Origin: a virus
Lineage: Duplodnaviria > Heunggongvirae > Uroviricota > Caudoviricetes
Length of the DNA stretch: 7,023 nt
IMG/VR virus record: IMGVR_UViG_2648501841_000009
Direction: 5' to 3' (one strand)
The notes under the pieces are model-generated. The model ran no database searches. It was not told the DNA's origin and saw nothing but the letters and a program-made list of their open reading frames with translations. Numbering within the stretch: the first letter of the stretch is position 1; the number at the start of each line of letters is the position of its first letter. Of the stretch, positions 69 to 4,757 are shown one piece after another. The position numbers and the translations under genes were made by a program.

Positions 69-260
69 TTAAAGTCCTGCCGGTATTTCGTTATTATTAG
101 TGTGAGTAGTTTTATCTACCGGATAACAGTTACCGGGAATTTTTTGTTCTGCTGCTGCAGCCATGCATTCTTTCATTGAACCGTATAAGCCAGTCACCAG
201 CTCAAGAGATTCGCCGGAAACAAGATAAACTGTCAGAACGAGTGCAAATGTTGTATTCAT
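69..260 (-). CDS. ydfD: YdfD-like small membrane protein (63 aa); Qin prophage YdfD is reported to cause lysis
   Basis: ATG at 260..258, stop at 71..69. Start overlaps the upstream gene's stop (ATGA), implying translational coupling. N-terminal hydrophobic stretch FALVLTVYLV followed by a Cys-containing tail. Length and position after dicB match YdfD of E. coli Qin as I recall it. Confidence 0.7.
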   Translation of the reverse strand: MNTTFALVLTVYLVSGESLELVTGLYGSMKECMAAAAEQKIPGNCYPVDKTTHTNNNEIPAGL

Positions 261-445
261 TGTTTATATCCTTTTTGCAGCAGGTCCAGACGAGCCAGCA
301 TTGAAGGAATGCATACTTCATTTAACAGGTCCTGCTCGAGTTTTCTCTGCTTAATGGCGTCTTCAATAAATGTTTTGTCTCCAGTGATAACGCCAATTTC
401 GAAACGAAGTTCAGACGTGCTGGCATTACATGATAACTTTTCCAT
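257..445 (-). CDS. dicB: DicB-like cell division inhibitor (62 aa)
   Basis: ATG at 445..443 with GAGGA about 8 nt upstream (minus strand). Product MEKLSCNASTSELRFEIGVITGDKTFIEDAIKQRKLEQDLLNEVCIPSMLARLDLLQKGYKQ closely resembles E. coli DicB as recalled from memory (FEIGV...TEDAI..RK.E..LLN..CI.SMLARL). The 98-aa ORF in the track begins at a TTG and is taken to be an over-extension. Confidence 0.8.
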   Translation of the reverse strand: MEKLSCNASTSELRFEIGVITGDKTFIEDAIKQRKLEQDLLNEVCIPSMLARLDLLQKGYKQ

Positions 446-625: not shown

Positions 626-683
626 AAAAAGGGCGGCAGAGCAGTTACGGAGTAAAACTGATACCGCCAAATGTCACCAGAAT
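626..683 (-). ncRNA. dicF: DicF-like small regulatory RNA with 3' intrinsic terminator
   Basis: Minus-strand sequence ATTCTGGTGACATTTGGCGGTATCAGTTTTACTCCGTAACTGCTCTGCCGCCCTTTTTT matches the E. coli DicF sRNA as I recall it except at about three positions. It ends in a GC-rich hairpin (GGCGG...CCGCC) plus a T-run and lies just upstream of dicB, as in Qin. Confidence 0.75.
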
Positions 684-2078: not shown

Positions 2079-2103
2079 GTTGACCTCATTTCCCCTTAAC
2101 GCC

Positions 2104-2113
2104 NNNNNNNNNN
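2104..2113. other. assembly gap or masked bases (10 N)
   Basis: Run of n characters in the 5' leader between the PL-like promoter and the ydfA-like gene. Confidence 0.95.
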
Positions 2114-2223
2114 TGCCGTCATGTTCATACGCCTCGGGCTGGCTACTTACCCCCTGACCACTGCTTGGTAACTCGAAGTATTGCCCGGCGTTCTGTGGGG
2201 CGGGGTGGGTGGTTGGTGTATGT

Positions 2224-2268
2224 AATCTACAATAAAAAACTGTTTTTGTGTCAACAGTTTTTAATTGT
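2224..2268 (-). promoter_or_regulatory. PL-like leftward promoter embedded in an operator (OL-like)
   Basis: Inverted repeat ACAATAAAAAACTGT (2229..2243) / ACAGTTTTTAATTGT (2254..2268) with a 10-bp spacer. On the minus strand the spacer carries TTGACA (plus 2249..2254) and TAGATT lies 19 bp downstream (plus 2224..2229). Near-identical to the site at 3264..3302. Confidence 0.45.
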
Positions 2269-2278
2269 TGTTTTGGGC

Positions 2279-2301
2279 AAAAAAATCCCTCGAAACAGGG
2301 A
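2279..2301 (-). terminator. candidate intrinsic terminator after the toxin gene
   Basis: On the minus strand: stem TCCCT/AGGGA (plus 2286..2290 and 2297..2301), 6-nt loop, then T7 (plus A-run 2279..2285), about 19 nt after the parE-like stop. The stem is short, so efficiency is probably partial. Confidence 0.4.
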
Positions 2302-2319
2302 GTATGAAAATTGTTCAAC

Positions 2320-2607
2320 TCAGATAGAGAAGGGAAATTGTCGCCGAGAATGTGTCACGCTTACAATCTCAATGCTTGAAGCAGCTACTCTGTACAGGAT
2401 TATGTAGTTAGGGTGGGTCACGATCTCTCTCAATCCAGAAACCCGTTCGCTTGGTGGATATAAGTACGGATGCTCAGATAGAGGTAATACCGATGTTTCA
2501 ATGCGTATTTTTAGTCTACGTGCTGCCGGTGGGTTCTCCTTGGCGATGTAAGTTATGATCTGGCGCAAATCATCGCGAGCAGACGGTAGCCATAAAATGG
2601 GTAACAT
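2320..2607 (-). CDS. parE: ParE/RelE-family type II toxin (95 aa), ParE2-like
   Basis: Product MLPILWLPSARDDLRQIITYIA...GLREIVTHPNYIILYRVAASSIEIVSVTHSRR shows the ParE-family pattern as I recall it. Its ATG overlaps the stop of the upstream antitoxin gene (TAATG). Confidence 0.9.
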   Translation of the reverse strand: MLPILWLPSARDDLRQIITYIAKENPPAARRLKIRIETSVLPLSEHPYLYPPSERVSGLREIVTHPNYIILYRVAASSIEIVSVTHSRRQFPFSI

Positions 2608-2798
2608 TACTCGCTCTTGTTAGTTACAGCAATTTGAGCAATAAGATTTTCCATTTCAGCCATTACCTCGTCATGTGGAATTGCGGGGCGAGTGTCTGCA
2701 AGGCTTGACGTTACTTTAGTGCGCAACCATTCGTTGTAACTGTTTTCTTGTTCGGTAGTTTCGAATTCTGAAACTATCGGAGAAAGGGCTGTACCCAT
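2607..2798 (-). CDS. paaA: PaaA2-like antitoxin (63 aa)
   Basis: GAGGAG about 9 nt upstream of ATG 2798..2796. The 63-aa product with SPIVSEFETTEQENSYNEWLRTKVTSSLADTRPAIPHDEV resembles the PaaA2 antitoxin of E. coli O157 as I recall it. It sits immediately upstream of and coupled to the ParE-like gene. Confidence 0.8.
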   Translation of the reverse strand: MGTALSPIVSEFETTEQENSYNEWLRTKVTSSLADTRPAIPHDEVMAEMENLIAQIAVTNKSE

Positions 2799-2825
2799 GG
2801 CATAACTCCTCTTCTTGTACTGTGG

Positions 2826-3227
2826 TCACGCCCGGCGGCTTTTTTGTGCCGCCAGCCACCTAGCAATGGTTTCTTCCATTGATTTTTTCTTGTCTTTGAT
2901 TTCTTGAAGCATTTTTTCTTGGTCTTCCTCAGGAAACGCACTAAAAGCTTGGAGCAGTTCGCGTTGGCGAGGACCAATTTTCATCGTGTCAGGGGTGAAA
3001 ATTTGCTCACACTCTTCAGGAGGCAATAAAAACCAATGCAATGGATGCCCTGAAACCTCAACCAGTTTATCCAAACTTGAGGCTTTAGGTGTAGCCTTAC
3101 CGCTGACCCATTGTTGAACAGTTTGTTGTGTCACACCAATTCTACGGGCAAGCTCAGCCTGGCTCCATCCAGTTTCCTGAAGAAGCTTGCTGATTCTGTA
3201 CATAGATACTTCTAGGGCGCTCATCAT
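2826..3227 (-). CDS. paaR: XRE-family HTH repressor, PaaR2/DicA-like (133 aa); likely the prophage immunity repressor
   Basis: N-terminal HTH (SQAELARRIGVTQQTVQQWVSG). It is the first gene of the leftward three-gene operon and is divergent from a Cro-like gene. Start is ATG 3227, with a second ATG at 3224; a possible alternative start at 3203 cannot be excluded. Confidence 0.85.
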   Translation of the reverse strand: MMSALEVSMYRISKLLQETGWSQAELARRIGVTQQTVQQWVSGKATPKASSLDKLVEVSGHPLHWFLLPPEECEQIFTPDTMKIGPRQRELLQAFSAFPEEDQEKMLQEIKDKKKSMEETIARWLAAQKSRRA

Positions 3228-3233
3228 TATTCA

Positions 3234-3262
3234 ATTTTACAGGTAAATACTGTTAAAAGCAT
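3234..3262 (-). promoter_or_regulatory. PRM-like promoter predicted to give a leaderless repressor mRNA
   Basis: Minus-strand TAAAAT (plus 3234..3239) lies 6 nt upstream of the repressor ATG, placing the predicted transcription start on the A of the start codon. No Shine-Dalgarno is present and the -35 (ATGCTT, plus 3257..3262) is weak. Confidence 0.4.
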
Positions 3263-3263
3263 C

Positions 3264-3302
3264 ACAATAAAAAACTGTTGATTGCATACAGTTTTTTATT
3301 GT
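3264..3302. promoter_or_regulatory. OR-like operator: perfect 15-bp inverted repeats separated by 9 bp
   Basis: ACAATAAAAAACTGT (3264..3278) - TGATTGCAT - ACAGTTTTTTATTGT (3288..3302). It sits between the divergent repressor and Cro-like genes and has a near-copy at 2229..2268. Confidence 0.6.
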
Positions 3303-3307
3303 AGGTT
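3278..3307 (+). promoter_or_regulatory. PR-like rightward promoter for the ydaS/ydaT-like operon
   Basis: TTGATT (3278..3283) inside the operator spacer, 18 bp, then TAGGTT (3302..3307). An alternative -10, TATAGT, is at 3313..3318. GAGGAGG (3324..3330) precedes ATG 3336. Confidence 0.4.
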
Positions 3308-3335: not shown

Positions 3336-3608
3336 ATGCTAGATAGCACTCGCGAAAAAATTAGGCAGAAATACACTCAGGCTGAAATAGGTCGTTATAT
3401 GGGGGTCGCTCAACAGACTGTTTGGCAATGGTTTAGCTTTGGCGTTCCCCCAAAGCAGGTAATTCCGTTATGCCAACTAATGAAGTGGGAAGTTACCCCG
3501 CATGAAATCCGCCCAGATATTTATCCTAACCCAACCGACGGTTTACCTGTTGGATGTAAGGTTAACACATCAAATGCGCCGGAGTTGATTCATGAAAATC
3601 AAGCATGA
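3336..3608 (+). CDS. ydaS: YdaS-family Cro-like HTH regulator (90 aa)
   Basis: Strong RBS. HTH QAEIGRYMGVAQQTVWQW followed by a VTPHEIRPDIYP tail that I recall as typical of the YdaS family. Divergent from the repressor. Confidence 0.85.
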   Translation: MLDSTREKIRQKYTQAEIGRYMGVAQQTVWQWFSFGVPPKQVIPLCQLMKWEVTPHEIRPDIYPNPTDGLPVGCKVNTSNAPELIHENQA

Positions 3609-4017
3609 ACACATCCGCATGGCGATGAATGTCTGGGCGCATCCGGACGGCGAAAAAGTACCGGCTGCGAAAATTACCAAAGCGTATTTCGAGCTGGGAA
3701 TGACGTTCCCGGAACTGTATGACGACAGCCATCCGGAAGCCATGGCTCGCAATACTCAGAAAATTTTCCGCTGGGTGGAGAAAGACACTCCTGATGCGGT
3801 TAAAAAAATTCAGGCGTTGTTACCAGCGATCGAAAAAGCGATGCCGCCTCCGCTGGTGGCCCGAATGCGCAGCCACAGTTCCGCTTATTTTCGGGAGTTG
3901 GTAGAGACGAAGGAACGGCTGGTGAAAGATATTGATGATTTCGTTGCATCAGCGATCGTTCTGTTCGATCAGATGAATCGTGGTGGCCCGGCAGGAAACA
4001 CTCTGGCTGTGCATTAA
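3592..4017 (+). CDS. ydaT: YdaT-like protein (141 aa), at the cII position
   Basis: Starts MKIKHEHI as I recall for the YdaT family. Overlaps the end of the ydaS-like gene by 17 nt. Confidence 0.8.
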   Translation: MKIKHEHIRMAMNVWAHPDGEKVPAAKITKAYFELGMTFPELYDDSHPEAMARNTQKIFRWVEKDTPDAVKKIQALLPAIEKAMPPPLVARMRSHSSAYFRELVETKERLVKDIDDFVASAIVLFDQMNRGGPAGNTLAVH

Positions 4018-4030
4018 TTGGGTAATAAAT

Positions 4031-4540
4031 ATGAGTAATGACAAAAAATTGACACTGAGCGTTTACGAAAACAGTCCGCACATCTGGCGTGGCGGTTTAT
4101 CTGATGTGGAGCTGGCAGAGTGGTTGATACATAAAGCTAATGCGCTGCTCTGGCGTTTGTCAGCCAGAGAACAGCGCAAGGAAACCAGAATAAAGCTGGC
4201 TGATGCAGAAGCGTGTGCCGGGCTTATTGAGGATTATACAAATCTTGGTATTTCTTCAGCAGAGAGTGATCCCATTCAGCCTCTGAGCAGGGAGTCAATC
4301 CAGCACGCTGGTTGTATGGCACATCTTGTAACTGCTCGTCAACATGAGGTGGGTATTGGATCACTTCCGGCGGGATATTCGCTGATTCCAGAGCTGGTTG
4401 AAGCAAGAAAATCAGTTCAGAAAAAGAGAGATGACGCACTTCAATTATTGAGAGAGCACTATGGCGCGATACCAGAATGCGAACAGCGTCGATACCCTGA
4501 AGGTTATGAATGGATGCAGTCTCTTTTTGAAGTTCGCTAA
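4031..4540 (+). CDS. hypothetical protein (169 aa), function unknown
   Basis: ATG 4031 lies 13 nt after the ydaT-like stop with only a weak RBS. Long ORF in the rightward operon with protein-like composition; I recognise no motif. I take the real start as ATG 4031, not the upstream GTG at 3980 used in the ORF track. Confidence 0.6.
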   Translation: MSNDKKLTLSVYENSPHIWRGGLSDVELAEWLIHKANALLWRLSAREQRKETRIKLADAEACAGLIEDYTNLGISSAESDPIQPLSRESIQHAGCMAHLVTARQHEVGIGSLPAGYSLIPELVEARKSVQKKRDDALQLLREHYGAIPECEQRRYPEGYEWMQSLFEVR

Positions 4541-4757
4541 TCAATATGTCGAGACGAAGGTATGTTTCGGCGCGCAGCCAGGCTCTGTAATCCGGGAGCA
4601 TTTCGGGGCTGTTACACCAGCGGTTTGTTGCTGCAACATTTAATACATGAGCCTGATAAAGGCTTTTCAAAAAATACATGTCGAACCTCCTCTGGTTCTG
4701 TCGATTGGGAACCACAGATTATATCCGGAGGAAGGTTCGGCACCAGATGAGGTAGCC

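Follow-up and report, generated by a model that had tools for sequence, protein, structure and literature searches.

The two palindromes that lie about 1 kb apart around a repressor-antitoxin-toxin operon are very probably the left and right immunity operators (OL and OR) of the defective lambdoid prophage Sp4, with the toxin-antitoxin (TA) genes paaA and parE carried between them as passengers. This reading draws support from the gene content of the locus, from comparison with other genomes and from a paralogue that has been characterised, and the original prediction of an OR/OL-like pair for one repressor is borne out, except that a third right-hand site, O_R3, had been missed. The arrangement is an ordinary phage switch, and no new kind of mechanism is revealed by it.

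The DNA that we analysed, a single window of 7,023 nt, matches prophage Sp4 of the E. coli O157:H7 strain Sakai at 99.9% identity, and the locus is annotated under that name in the Sakai genome. We take Sp4 of Sakai to be the counterpart of CP-933M of EDL933. A paralogous PaaR-PaaA-ParE system has been placed on CP-933M in the literature. At a coverage of at least 80%, the module was found in 507 of 5,426 complete E. coli genomes, or about one in ten. The repressor gene ends 27 nt from paaA, both lying on the minus strand, and the PaaA antitoxin is followed by the ParE toxin in the order of the three-component PaaR-PaaA-ParE systems (Hallez et al. 2010), with a PaaR-type regulator upstream in the operon (Table 1). 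We considered whether the TA proteins are PaaA2 and ParE2 themselves and rejected this identification, as by sequence they are paralogues. The repressor and the Cro-like YdaS are divergently encoded across an intergenic region of 108 bp, which holds three copies of the operator motif, and the CII-like YdaT follows together with a perfect copy of the operator consensus published for YdaT, 5'-TTGATTN6AATCAA-3' (PMC9986795). The terminator-like hairpin of the repressor-paaA-parE operon has an equivalent in the Salmonella locus of our comparison set (L004), where a GC hairpin with a T run also stands before OL. Leftward of OL lie ydfA (DUF1391), the DicF sRNA at positions 631-682 and a DicB-like ORF.

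Table 1. Genes, predicted operators and predicted promoters of the Sp4 immunity region (window coordinates).
Feature	Position	Strand	Evidence
Predicted PL: -35 TTGACA (2254-2249), 19-bp spacer, -10 TAGATT (2229-2224)	2224..2254	-	sequence; relatives
Predicted O_L1, ACAATAAAAAACTGT (ACAGTTTTTTATTGT in PL direction), within PL spacer	2229..2243	.	repeats, matrix, relatives
Predicted O_L2, ACAGTTTTTAATTGT, abuts/overlaps PL -35	2254..2268	.	repeats, matrix, relatives
Terminator-like hairpin and T7 run, end of repressor-paaA-parE operon, directly before OL	2286..2301	-	
ParE-family toxin, 95 aa, ECs_1067 in Sakai	2320..2607	-	Pfam PF05016, E=2.9e-17; ParE2 structure 5cw7, E=3e-36
PaaA-family antitoxin, 63 aa, ECs_1068	2607..2798	-	Pfam PF21217 PaaA2, E=5.6e-19; 3zbe (PaaA2), E=1.4e-20
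CI-position repressor, 133 aa, identical to ECs_1069	2826..3227	-	Pfam HTH_3
Predicted PRM core: -10 TAAAAT (3239-3234), 6 nt, ATG at 3227	3227..3239	-	sequence; 7 loci
Predicted O_R3, weaker operator ACAGGTAAATACTGT, over PRM spacer and -10	3239..3253	.	matrix; 7 loci
Predicted O_R2, ACAATAAAAAACTGT, between PRM -35 region and PR -35	3264..3278	.	repeats, matrix, relatives
Predicted PR: -35 TTGATT (3278-3283), 18-bp spacer, -10 TAGGTT (3302-3307)	3278..3307	+	sequence; relatives
Predicted O_R1, ACAGTTTTTTATTGT, within PR spacer	3288..3302	.	repeats, matrix, relatives
Cro-like YdaS, 90 aa, ECs_1070	3336..3608	+	Pfam PF15943
YdaT operator consensus, TTGATTCATGAAAATCAA; equivalent of PRE region	3585..3602		exact match
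CII-like YdaT, 141 aa, ECs_1071	3592..4017	+	Pfam PF06254; CP-933P YdaT structure 8bt1, E=3.9e-83

A pattern search of the window for the 15-mer ACAATAAAAAACTGT returned four matches, at 2229-2243 and 3264-3278 on the plus strand and at 2254-2268 (one mismatch) and 3288-3302 on the minus strand, compared with 0.37 matches expected by chance when up to three mismatches are allowed; none of 200 dinucleotide-preserving shuffles reached four. This search and a repeat finder agreed on the two near-identical palindromes that had been described around the operon. At the right site the 15-nt arms 3264-3278 and 3288-3302 are 100% complementary with 9 nt between them, and at the left site the same arms, separated by 10 bp, carry a single mismatch located in 2254-2268; taken over 2224-2244 and 2253-2273, the left arms are 86% complementary. 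Between the two ends, 2224-2243 and 3288-3307 match in inverted orientation at 95% (19/20). A shared core of about 18 nt had been claimed, and the core common to both palindromes, ACAGTTTTTTATTGTAG, is present with a length of 17 nt, rising to the 19/20 match when its flanks are included. The additional right-hand site O_R3 has a matrix score of 15.4, as against 7.8 for the next best site in the window, and renders the right operator tripartite, with site centres 25 and 24 bp apart. The left operator consists of two sites within 2229-2268 with TTGACA between them, and no third left-hand site was found about 24-25 bp to either side of this pair. Judged from these sequences, the binding unit is most likely a 15-bp pseudo-palindrome, ACA(A/G)T-N5-A(C/T)TGT, rather than the 39-bp element. 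What the original prediction called a bipartite operator is therefore likely to be two adjacent operators, O2 and O1.

The comparison set comprised seven loci, two of them from E. coli and the others from Salmonella, Klebsiella, Pluralibacter, Morganella and one metagenome. Counted from the repressor ATG, sites begin at -75, -51 and -26 in all seven, except that in one locus the first stands at -74; they were picked by an ACA-N9-TGT filter that makes their outer three bases invariant by construction. The majority fraction was 0.86 in the half-sites versus 0.61 in flanking and inter-site DNA, in loci that are homologous and whose matching positions partly reflect common descent. A pair of the OL type, 23-25 bp apart, was present downstream in all six loci with enough sequence, and this two-site left operator of the relatives lies at a variable distance, with TA genes present or absent.

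Inverted identity between O1 and O2 ranged from 10 to 15 of 15 positions in the relatives (14/15 in Salmonella), showing that their mutual symmetry is not conserved, and a compensatory pattern was absent. These observations make it very unlikely that the whole 39-40-bp palindrome, rather than two independent protein-binding sites, is the functional unit, whether by forming a DNA cruciform or by folding into an RNA hairpin, for instance a terminator or attenuator in a leftward PRE-type transcript. Such a role would fit the perfect pairing of the arms in the window (at the right site) and the short U runs close to the stems, and folding as RNA is indeed favourable: the right site reaches -16 to -18 kcal/mol (z = -4.2 and -5.2), the left site -14.2 kcal/mol (z = -4.6), and the Salmonella right site folds well too (z = -7.1). 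However, Klebsiella and Pluralibacter lack the long hairpin (z = -1.5 and -1.2) yet retain all of their 15-mers at unchanged offsets, O_R3 has no partner arm, and the predicted starts of PR and PL lie downstream of the palindromes, which are thus not within those transcripts.

The -35 hexamers in the spacers of both palindromes and the TAG(A/G)TT -10 candidates were found at the positions originally claimed for them. All seven loci have TTGA at the O2 end and TA..(T) at the O1 end, and in all seven TA(A/G)(A/G)AT (TAAAAT or TAGAAT) stands 6 nt before the repressor ATG, a distance that implies a leaderless repressor mRNA. Although weak against the consensus, with TAGATT matching at 4/6 positions and TAGGTT at 3/6, the hexamers that overlap the sites occupy conserved positions in all relatives; the PR -10 reads TAGGCT in Sakai, DEC4E and N47. 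A generic sigma-70 promoter scan of the window called neither PR nor PL, because of the poor PR -10 and the 19-bp spacer of PL, and the promoter assignments therefore rest on the position-conserved hexamers. In CP-933P (Sp12), the equivalents of PR, PRM and PL have been mapped or reporter-tested, and the leaderless paaR2 mRNA was demonstrated by 5' RACE (PMC8630535).

The repressor has an N-terminal five-helix XRE helix-turn-helix (HTH) domain (AF2 model, helices within residues 4-67) with the recognition helix TQQTVQQW, followed by a flexible linker and a PaaR-type helical C-terminal domain, which is a helical hairpin in the AF2 model. A Pfam search revealed no Peptidase_S24 or RecA-cleavage domain in the protein. 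By BLASTP, the repressor is 42% identical to PaaR2 over 98 aa (E=2e-20), most strongly in the last 46 aa, where identity is about 65%; its N-terminal 36 residues do not align, the first aligned residue being 37. The repressor being PaaR2 itself was rejected, as PaaR2 starts MQKKE and only the C-terminal part is common. The best solved-structure sequence match of the N-terminal domain was the 434 repressor (phmmer, 2r63/1per, E=3.2e-5), the 434 helix TQQSIEQ aligning to TQQTVQQ with Gln-Gln...Gln kept, and among the generic XRE matches from Foldseek was the repressor domain of 434. Whether queried by sequence or by fold, the PDB yielded only generic XRE domains and no PaaR structure. The recognition helix of YdaS, AQQTVWQW, is similar to that of the repressor. 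A protein search of phages returned none of this immunity type (the best match, at 54% identity, covered the HTH alone), and at the DNA level the only near-identical match in sequenced phages was the conserved PL leader. Literature searches for these operator strings and for those of 434 found nothing relevant, and under the name PaaR1 they yielded type VI secretion papers only.

The operators of 434 are 14-bp ACAA-N6-TTGT sequences. In addition to the Gln-Gln...Gln helix, the Sp4 locus resembles 434 in a half-site that begins ACA(A/G) and in a QQ-containing Cro helix, and it differs in its 15-bp operator with one extra central base pair, in a different C-terminus without the S24 autocleavage domain, and in low overall identity. 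The locus is also comparable to DicA/DicC (Qin) and RacR/YdaS (Rac) of K-12, which likewise have a short repressor without a peptidase domain and YdaS/YdaT-family partners, and guard a left operon with division inhibitors (DicF, DicB-like). DicA is a distant match (28% identity), and these systems differ from Sp4 in DNA-binding specificity and operators, and in that the TA passenger is found here.

The characterised paralogue is CP-933P, where paaR2-paaA2-parE2 and ydaS-ydaT are arranged with OR, OL, PR, PRM, PL and PRE (Jurenas et al., mBio 2021, PMC8630535). Its intergenic region is footprinted by PaaR2 and YdaS, both of which regulate PR, PRM and PL by repression; PRM is activated by low PaaR2, and PaaR2 is octameric in solution (PMC8630535). 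Sp4 shares with CP-933P the order parE-paaA-repressor followed by divergent ydaS-ydaT, a predicted leaderless repressor start, a predicted multi-site right operator, a second predicted operator-promoter on the far side of the TA genes, the PL leader, a left operon of the ydfA/dicB type and the repressor C-terminal domain. In addition, YdaT is about 88% identical and its operator consensus is exactly matched. In contrast, the N-terminal DNA-binding domain is different, and so are the operators, which in CP-933P are of the GTTTAGT type, have been counted either as four inverted repeats of 18 bp or as three operators, and for this comparison were read from the genome. The intergenic region is 97 bp long in CP-933P versus 108 bp here, and whereas the CP-933P sites are experimentally supported, those of Sp4 are predicted from sequence. 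The predicted immunity specificity of Sp4 is hence distinct from that of PaaR2/CP-933P. The TA paralogues of the CP-933M and CP-933P types show no cross-neutralisation (PMC4803016).

[quoted passage not shown] The Salmonella, Klebsiella, Pluralibacter and Morganella repressors found with the Sp4-type sites have nearly the same recognition helix. Locus L008, with the repressor helix AQQSVQKW, has its own repeat motif at both OL and OR, and L013, with SQQTVQRW, has ACAC-N7-GTGT repeats, at OR only. In the corresponding places at OL and OR, L001, which encodes a different HTH, has AATAG-N5-CTATT repeats, and the PaaR2 locus (L015) has GTTTAGT repeats. At least three clearly distinct repeat motifs (window type, L001 and PaaR2/L015) track the DNA-binding domains, and from one HTH type to another the Cro and repressor helices change in step.

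It is extremely improbable that the palindromes are instead type II TA autoregulatory operators that are bound by PaaA-ParE, with the HTH protein as an accessory. They do flank the TA operon, and PaaA-ParE partly represses the paaR promoter according to the account of Hallez et al. 2010 given in PMC4803016, and proteins besides the repressor may thus act there. However, PaaA has a Pfam match to the PaaA2 family only and none to a DNA-binding family, and the PaaA2 family is described as being without a DNA-binding motif (PMC8630535). The same operators occur in the Salmonella, Klebsiella, Pluralibacter and Morganella loci, where no TA genes separate the repressor from OL, while L008 combines a PaaA2/ParE2-type TA with a different repressor and different repeats, indicating that it is the repressor, rather than the TA pair, with which the repeats travel.

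Likeness between OL and OR at the same position was greater within a genome (13.5/15) than between genomes (11.8/15). Together with the inverted orientation of the two ends, on either side of a module that has been reshuffled between prophages, this would be compatible with a mobile cassette that brought in the repressor-TA module, the two sites being its terminal inverted repeats or its recombination sites. We give such an origin hardly any credence: there is no transposase or integrase inside the bracket, the sites are embedded in a conserved layout of predicted promoter elements, with three of them on the right, and the inverted layout is explained by PL and PR as divergent copies of one promoter-operator design, like in lambda. 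Exchange of lambdoid immunity modules is usually attributed to homologous recombination in conserved flanks, and flanks of this kind are present at the locus.

For the immunity switch that we favour, repressor binding, the order in which sites would be filled, activation and an OL-OR loop are inferred from lambda and from the published experiments on PaaR2 and YdaS of CP-933P. A dimer of ECs_1069 would most likely bind the 15-bp pseudo-palindromes, three on the right and two on the left. With O1 and O2 occupied at either end, the promoter there (PR or PL) would have its -35 and its spacer covered. Shut-off of PR would silence the rightward ydaS(cro)-ydaT(cII)-replication genes, and shut-off of PL the leftward genes ydfA-ydfB-...-dicF-dicB. 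From O_R2, beside the weak PRM -35, the repressor could activate its own promoter, and at high concentration it would repress PRM from O_R3, which lies over the PRM -10. YdaS, given its similar recognition helix, presumably competes for the same sites. The paaA and parE genes would be passengers in the slot that rexAB occupies in lambda, co-transcribed with the repressor and terminated before OL.

Like lambda, the Sp4 region has a predicted tripartite right operator with centres about 24 bp apart, O1 and O2 lying over the predicted PR and O3 over the predicted PRM, with O2 beside a weak candidate -35 of PRM, as well as a predicted leaderless repressor mRNA, passenger genes between the repressor and OL, and a terminator-like hairpin before OL. 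Unlike lambda, it has operators of 15 rather than 17 bp, only two recognisable sites in the left operator, an OL-OR distance of about 1.03 kb rather than about 2.3 kb, and, in place of the S24 peptidase domain, an unrelated short helical C-terminal domain. Lambda is the precedent for OL-OR looping through repressor octamers (PMC8630535, refs 38-40). In Sp4 such looping is plausible, because the C-terminal domain is common to PaaR2, which is reported to be octameric (PMC8630535).

More tentatively, and with doubt prevailing, the PaaR family may be a natural domain-swap series, in which a shared C-terminal oligomerisation module is joined to interchangeable HTHs with matched operators. Under this scheme a 434-like helix would read a 15-bp site, a change from Gln to Arg/Lys would accompany that from ACA(A/G) to ACAC, OL and OR would undergo concerted evolution within a genome, and an octamer might loop out about 1 kb of passenger genes, which could result in bistable TA expression.

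Taken together, the analysis provides an operator map of Sp4/CP-933M with five predicted sites, three predicted promoters and a likely half-site code. On this map, the Sp4 repressor is predicted to keep DicF and DicB silent and to set PaaA/ParE expression at the locus. The map also predicts heteroimmunity to CP-933P in the same cell despite the common repressor C-terminal domain, which itself raises the question of mixed oligomers between the two repressors. In addition, these loci offer a compact natural series in which HTH specificity and operator sequence change together.

The window matches E. coli O157:H7 Sakai at 1165102-1172116 with 99.9% identity, within the annotated 'prophage Sp4, lambda-like phage', which we take to be CP-933M. 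The genes between the two operator sets all lie on the minus strand and encode an HTH repressor (133 aa, identical to ECs_1069), a PaaA-family antitoxin and a ParE-family toxin, as expected from the original prediction that a pair of near-identical palindromes brackets a repressor-antitoxin-toxin operon. To the right lie the Cro-like YdaS, the CII-like YdaT, which matched the YdaT structure of the paralogous prophage CP-933P with E=3.9e-83, and replication genes. The left side carries ydfA (DUF1391), the DicF sRNA and a DicB-like ORF, and the presence of the last two makes the PL operon one of the dicB type, coding for cell-division inhibitors. The module was found at ≥80% coverage in 507 of 5,426 complete E. 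coli genomes. Two runs of N interrupt the window, one (2104-2113) replacing about 46 nt found in Sakai and DEC4E and the other (5876-6007) lying within a DnaC-like replication gene.

Coordinates of the operator sites, predicted promoter elements and neighbouring features in the window
Feature	Position	Strand or direction	Remark
ACAATAAAAAACTGT match	2229-2243	+	repeat finder, mismatch-tolerant search
ACAATAAAAAACTGT match	2254-2268	-	1 mismatch; repeat finder, mismatch-tolerant search
ACAATAAAAAACTGT match	3264-3278	+	repeat finder, mismatch-tolerant search
ACAATAAAAAACTGT match	3288-3302	-	repeat finder, mismatch-tolerant search
ACAGGTAAATACTGT, fifth site	3239-3253		matrix search
Predicted PL -35, TTGACA	2254-2249	leftward	as originally predicted
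Predicted PL -10, TAGATT	2229-2224	leftward	as originally predicted
Predicted PR -35, TTGATT	3278-3283	rightward	as originally predicted
Predicted PR -10, TAGGTT	3302-3307	rightward	as originally predicted
Terminator-like hairpin	2286-2301		after the repressor-PaaA-ParE genes
DicF sRNA	631-682	-	Rfam RF00039, 76.9 bits, full length
DicB-like ORF	~257-445	-	
ORF 'ECs1072 family phage-associated protein' (RefSeq)	4224-4715	-	antisense, between ydaT and replication genes

Both palindromes were recovered with the arms and spacers attributed to them: 10 bp between the arms of the left site and 9 bp between those of the right site. Only 0.37 matches to ACAATAAAAAACTGT with up to three mismatches would be expected by chance in the window, and none of 200 dinucleotide-preserving shuffles contained four; with flanks included, 19 of the 20 bases of 2224-2243 are those of the reverse-complemented 3288-3307. 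A matrix derived from the four arms and run over the window added a fifth site, ACAGGTAAATACTGT, scoring 15.4 against 7.8 for the runner-up position, so that the right-hand region holds three sites, centred on 3246, 3271 and 3295 in steps of 25 and 24 bp. The left-hand region has two sites 25 bp apart, and no third left-hand site was found in the window. Every 15-mer is a pseudo-palindrome of the form ACA(A/G)T-N5-A(C/T)TGT, the form expected for a site predicted to bind one HTH dimer. The paired arms are present as claimed, but the supposed 39-40 bp bipartite operator is most likely not a single unit; it would consist of two adjacent operators that happen to face in opposite directions. The arms form a long hairpin in the window and in the Salmonella locus, whereas Klebsiella and Pluralibacter lack it; since the 15-mers are kept in all four, it is unlikely that the palindrome acts as a hairpin or cruciform. 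In O157 strains the left-pair spacer (2244-2253) has 10 bp, with a T5 run; strain N47 (L002 3090-3098) has 9 bp, and both its left arms carry the A/T change and make up a perfect palindrome.

The -35 hexamers within the spacers and the TAG(A/G)TT -10 candidates are present where they had been placed. A generic sigma-70 scan called neither PR nor PL, because PR has a -10 matching at only 3/6 positions and PL a 19-bp spacer. One PR/PL design recurs in every compared locus: O2 ends in TGT, its final T being the first base of the -35 (TTGAnn), while O1 occupies the spacer and its final T is the first base of the -10 (TAGGTT, TAGATT, TAGTCT, TAATAT or similar). A spacer of 18 bp is usual here, and PL of N47 has this length, but PL of O157 has 19 bp. 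O_R3 ends on the T of TAAAAT/TAGAAT with the repressor ATG six nucleotides further, a layout that predicts a leaderless repressor mRNA in all seven loci, and 17 bp upstream of this -10 is a poor -35 abutting O_R2, apparently the same arrangement as in lambda PRM. We infer the PR, PL and PRM assignments at the level of sequence. Position 3306 is polymorphic within the predicted PR -10, which reads TAGGTT in the window and TAGGCT in Sakai, DEC4E and N47.

Relatives were found by homology search with the repressor and their loci retrieved; the comparison covered seven loci, two from E. coli and one each from Salmonella, Klebsiella, Pluralibacter, Morganella and a metagenome contig. Six of these have (T/A)QQTVQQW as recognition helix, and the metagenome locus has SQQTIQQW. 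Counted from the repressor ATG, all seven loci have ACA-N9-TGT sites beginning at -75 (one locus: -74), -51 and -26, and a downstream pair, 23-25 bp apart, occurs in all six loci with enough sequence. Because the search filter fixed the outer three bases, no weight attaches to their invariance; the filter has no bearing on the constant offsets or on the second pair. The majority fraction was 0.86 in half-sites compared with 0.61 in DNA outside the sites. The left pair lies 507 nt from the repressor ATG in Morganella, with nothing in between, about 960 nt in E. coli, with the TA pair in between, and 984 to 1582 nt in Salmonella, Pluralibacter and Klebsiella, with unrelated ORFs in the gap. This variation with the intervening genes argues that the operators go with the repressor and that the TA pair is a passenger. 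Classical operators bound by the antitoxin are unlikely, because PaaA lacks a DNA-binding domain and the sites also occur without TA genes. It is also improbable that the sites are the ends of a mobile cassette, given that there is no recombinase, that they belong to the promoter architecture and that three lie on the right.

Loci with another DNA-binding domain have other repeats at unchanged positions, as seen in CP-933P and in the comparison loci L008 (helix AQQSVQKW; ACACyTwTAAAGTTA-type repeats at both ends), L013 (SQQTVQRW; ACAC-N7-GTGT) and L001 (an unrelated HTH with the same C-terminal domain; AATAG-N5-CTATT). Together with the constant offsets and the second pair, this supports the predicted OR/OL-like arrangement for one repressor as essentially right. 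The recognition helix of the Cro-like protein shifts with that of the repressor between HTH types (AQQTVWQW with TQQTVQQW; TQGMVSH with TQGAVSH), as would be expected if both read the same sites. Within a genome, O_R1/O_L1 and O_R2/O_L2 agree at 13.5/15 positions, compared with 11.8/15 between genomes, a hint, from five genomes only, that the two promoter-operator modules have undergone concerted evolution. Across loci the modules are mosaic, the same C-terminal repressor domain occurring with three or more clearly distinct DNA-binding domains (those of the window, L001 and PaaR2) as well as with the two helix variants of L008 and L013. PaaA/ParE paralogues are reassorted among L001, L008, L013, L015 (CP-933P) and the window; L008 has a PaaA2/ParE2-like pair, showing that TA and repressor types occur in different combinations from locus to locus. 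In L013 an additional YoeB/YefM pair separates ParE from the place where OL is expected.

The AlphaFold model of the repressor (mean pLDDT 80.8) has a five-helix HTH domain at residues 4-67 and a helical hairpin at the C-terminus (86-132), with a linker between them modelled at low confidence (75-83), and a domain search found no S24 peptidase domain. Foldseek returned generic XRE domains, including 434 repressor and SinR. The best sequence match among solved structures was 434 repressor, whose recognition helix TQQSIEQ aligns with TQQTVQQ. The 434 operators are 14-bp ACAA-N6-TTGT sites; the half-sites start alike and the present site is one base pair longer, a resemblance we regard as a lead. 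Lambda provides the precedent for OL-OR looping. The OL and OR pairs lie 1,035 bp apart in the window, and among relatives their separation varies by more than 1 kb (measured from the repressor start codon, OL begins at 507 to 1,582 nt). Looping may plausibly occur; the support is indirect and comes from the two sites at each end, the lambda precedent and a C-terminal domain in common with PaaR2, which is reported to be octameric.

E. coli O157:H7 carries two paaR-paaA-parE systems (PMC4803016). In CP-933P, PaaR2, octameric in solution, and YdaS shift and footprint a 97-bp intergenic region; 5' RACE mapped the PR and PRM start sites and showed the paaR2 mRNA to be leaderless; low PaaR2 activates PRM, YdaT activates a PRE-like promoter, and repression of about 100-fold acts on a PL/OL copy beyond parE2 (PMC8630535). 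The leaderless mRNA shown there is the layout predicted for the window repressor. A homologue of this system was placed on CP-933M (PMC8630535), and the window is that homologue, not CP-933P. Its repressor is not PaaR2, which starts MQKKE rather than MMSALE; when compared with CP-933P taken from an O157:H7 genome (L015), the two repressors align only over residues 37-133 (42% identity, E=2e-20), with the last 46 residues about 65% identical and the N-terminal DNA-binding parts unrelated, and the CP-933P repeats are of the GTTTAGT type, unlike the present 15-mers.

At the ydaS/ydaT overlap, TTGATTCATGAAAATCAA (3585-3602) exactly matches the published YdaT operator consensus 5'-TTGATTN6AATCAA-3' and is therefore likely to be a PRE-type control region. 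Between PL and ydfA, a stretch of about 100 nt (~2100-2215, minus strand) varies hardly at all between immunity types and between genera, and is also present in L001, L002, L003, L004, L010 and L015, though the adjacent operators and passengers differ. RNAalifold gave two stem-loops with few compensatory changes and the stretch had no Rfam match; a role as antiterminator-like leader RNA would be no more than a guess.

Taken together, the sites are best read as the predicted OR (three) and OL (two) operators of prophage Sp4/CP-933M. The lambdoid switch itself is of textbook design, and its sister system in CP-933P is experimentally characterised. The searchable literature yielded no mention of the present 15-mers. 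What appears not to have been described before is this immunity specificity, comprising the operator sequence and site map together with the recognition helix that matches them.
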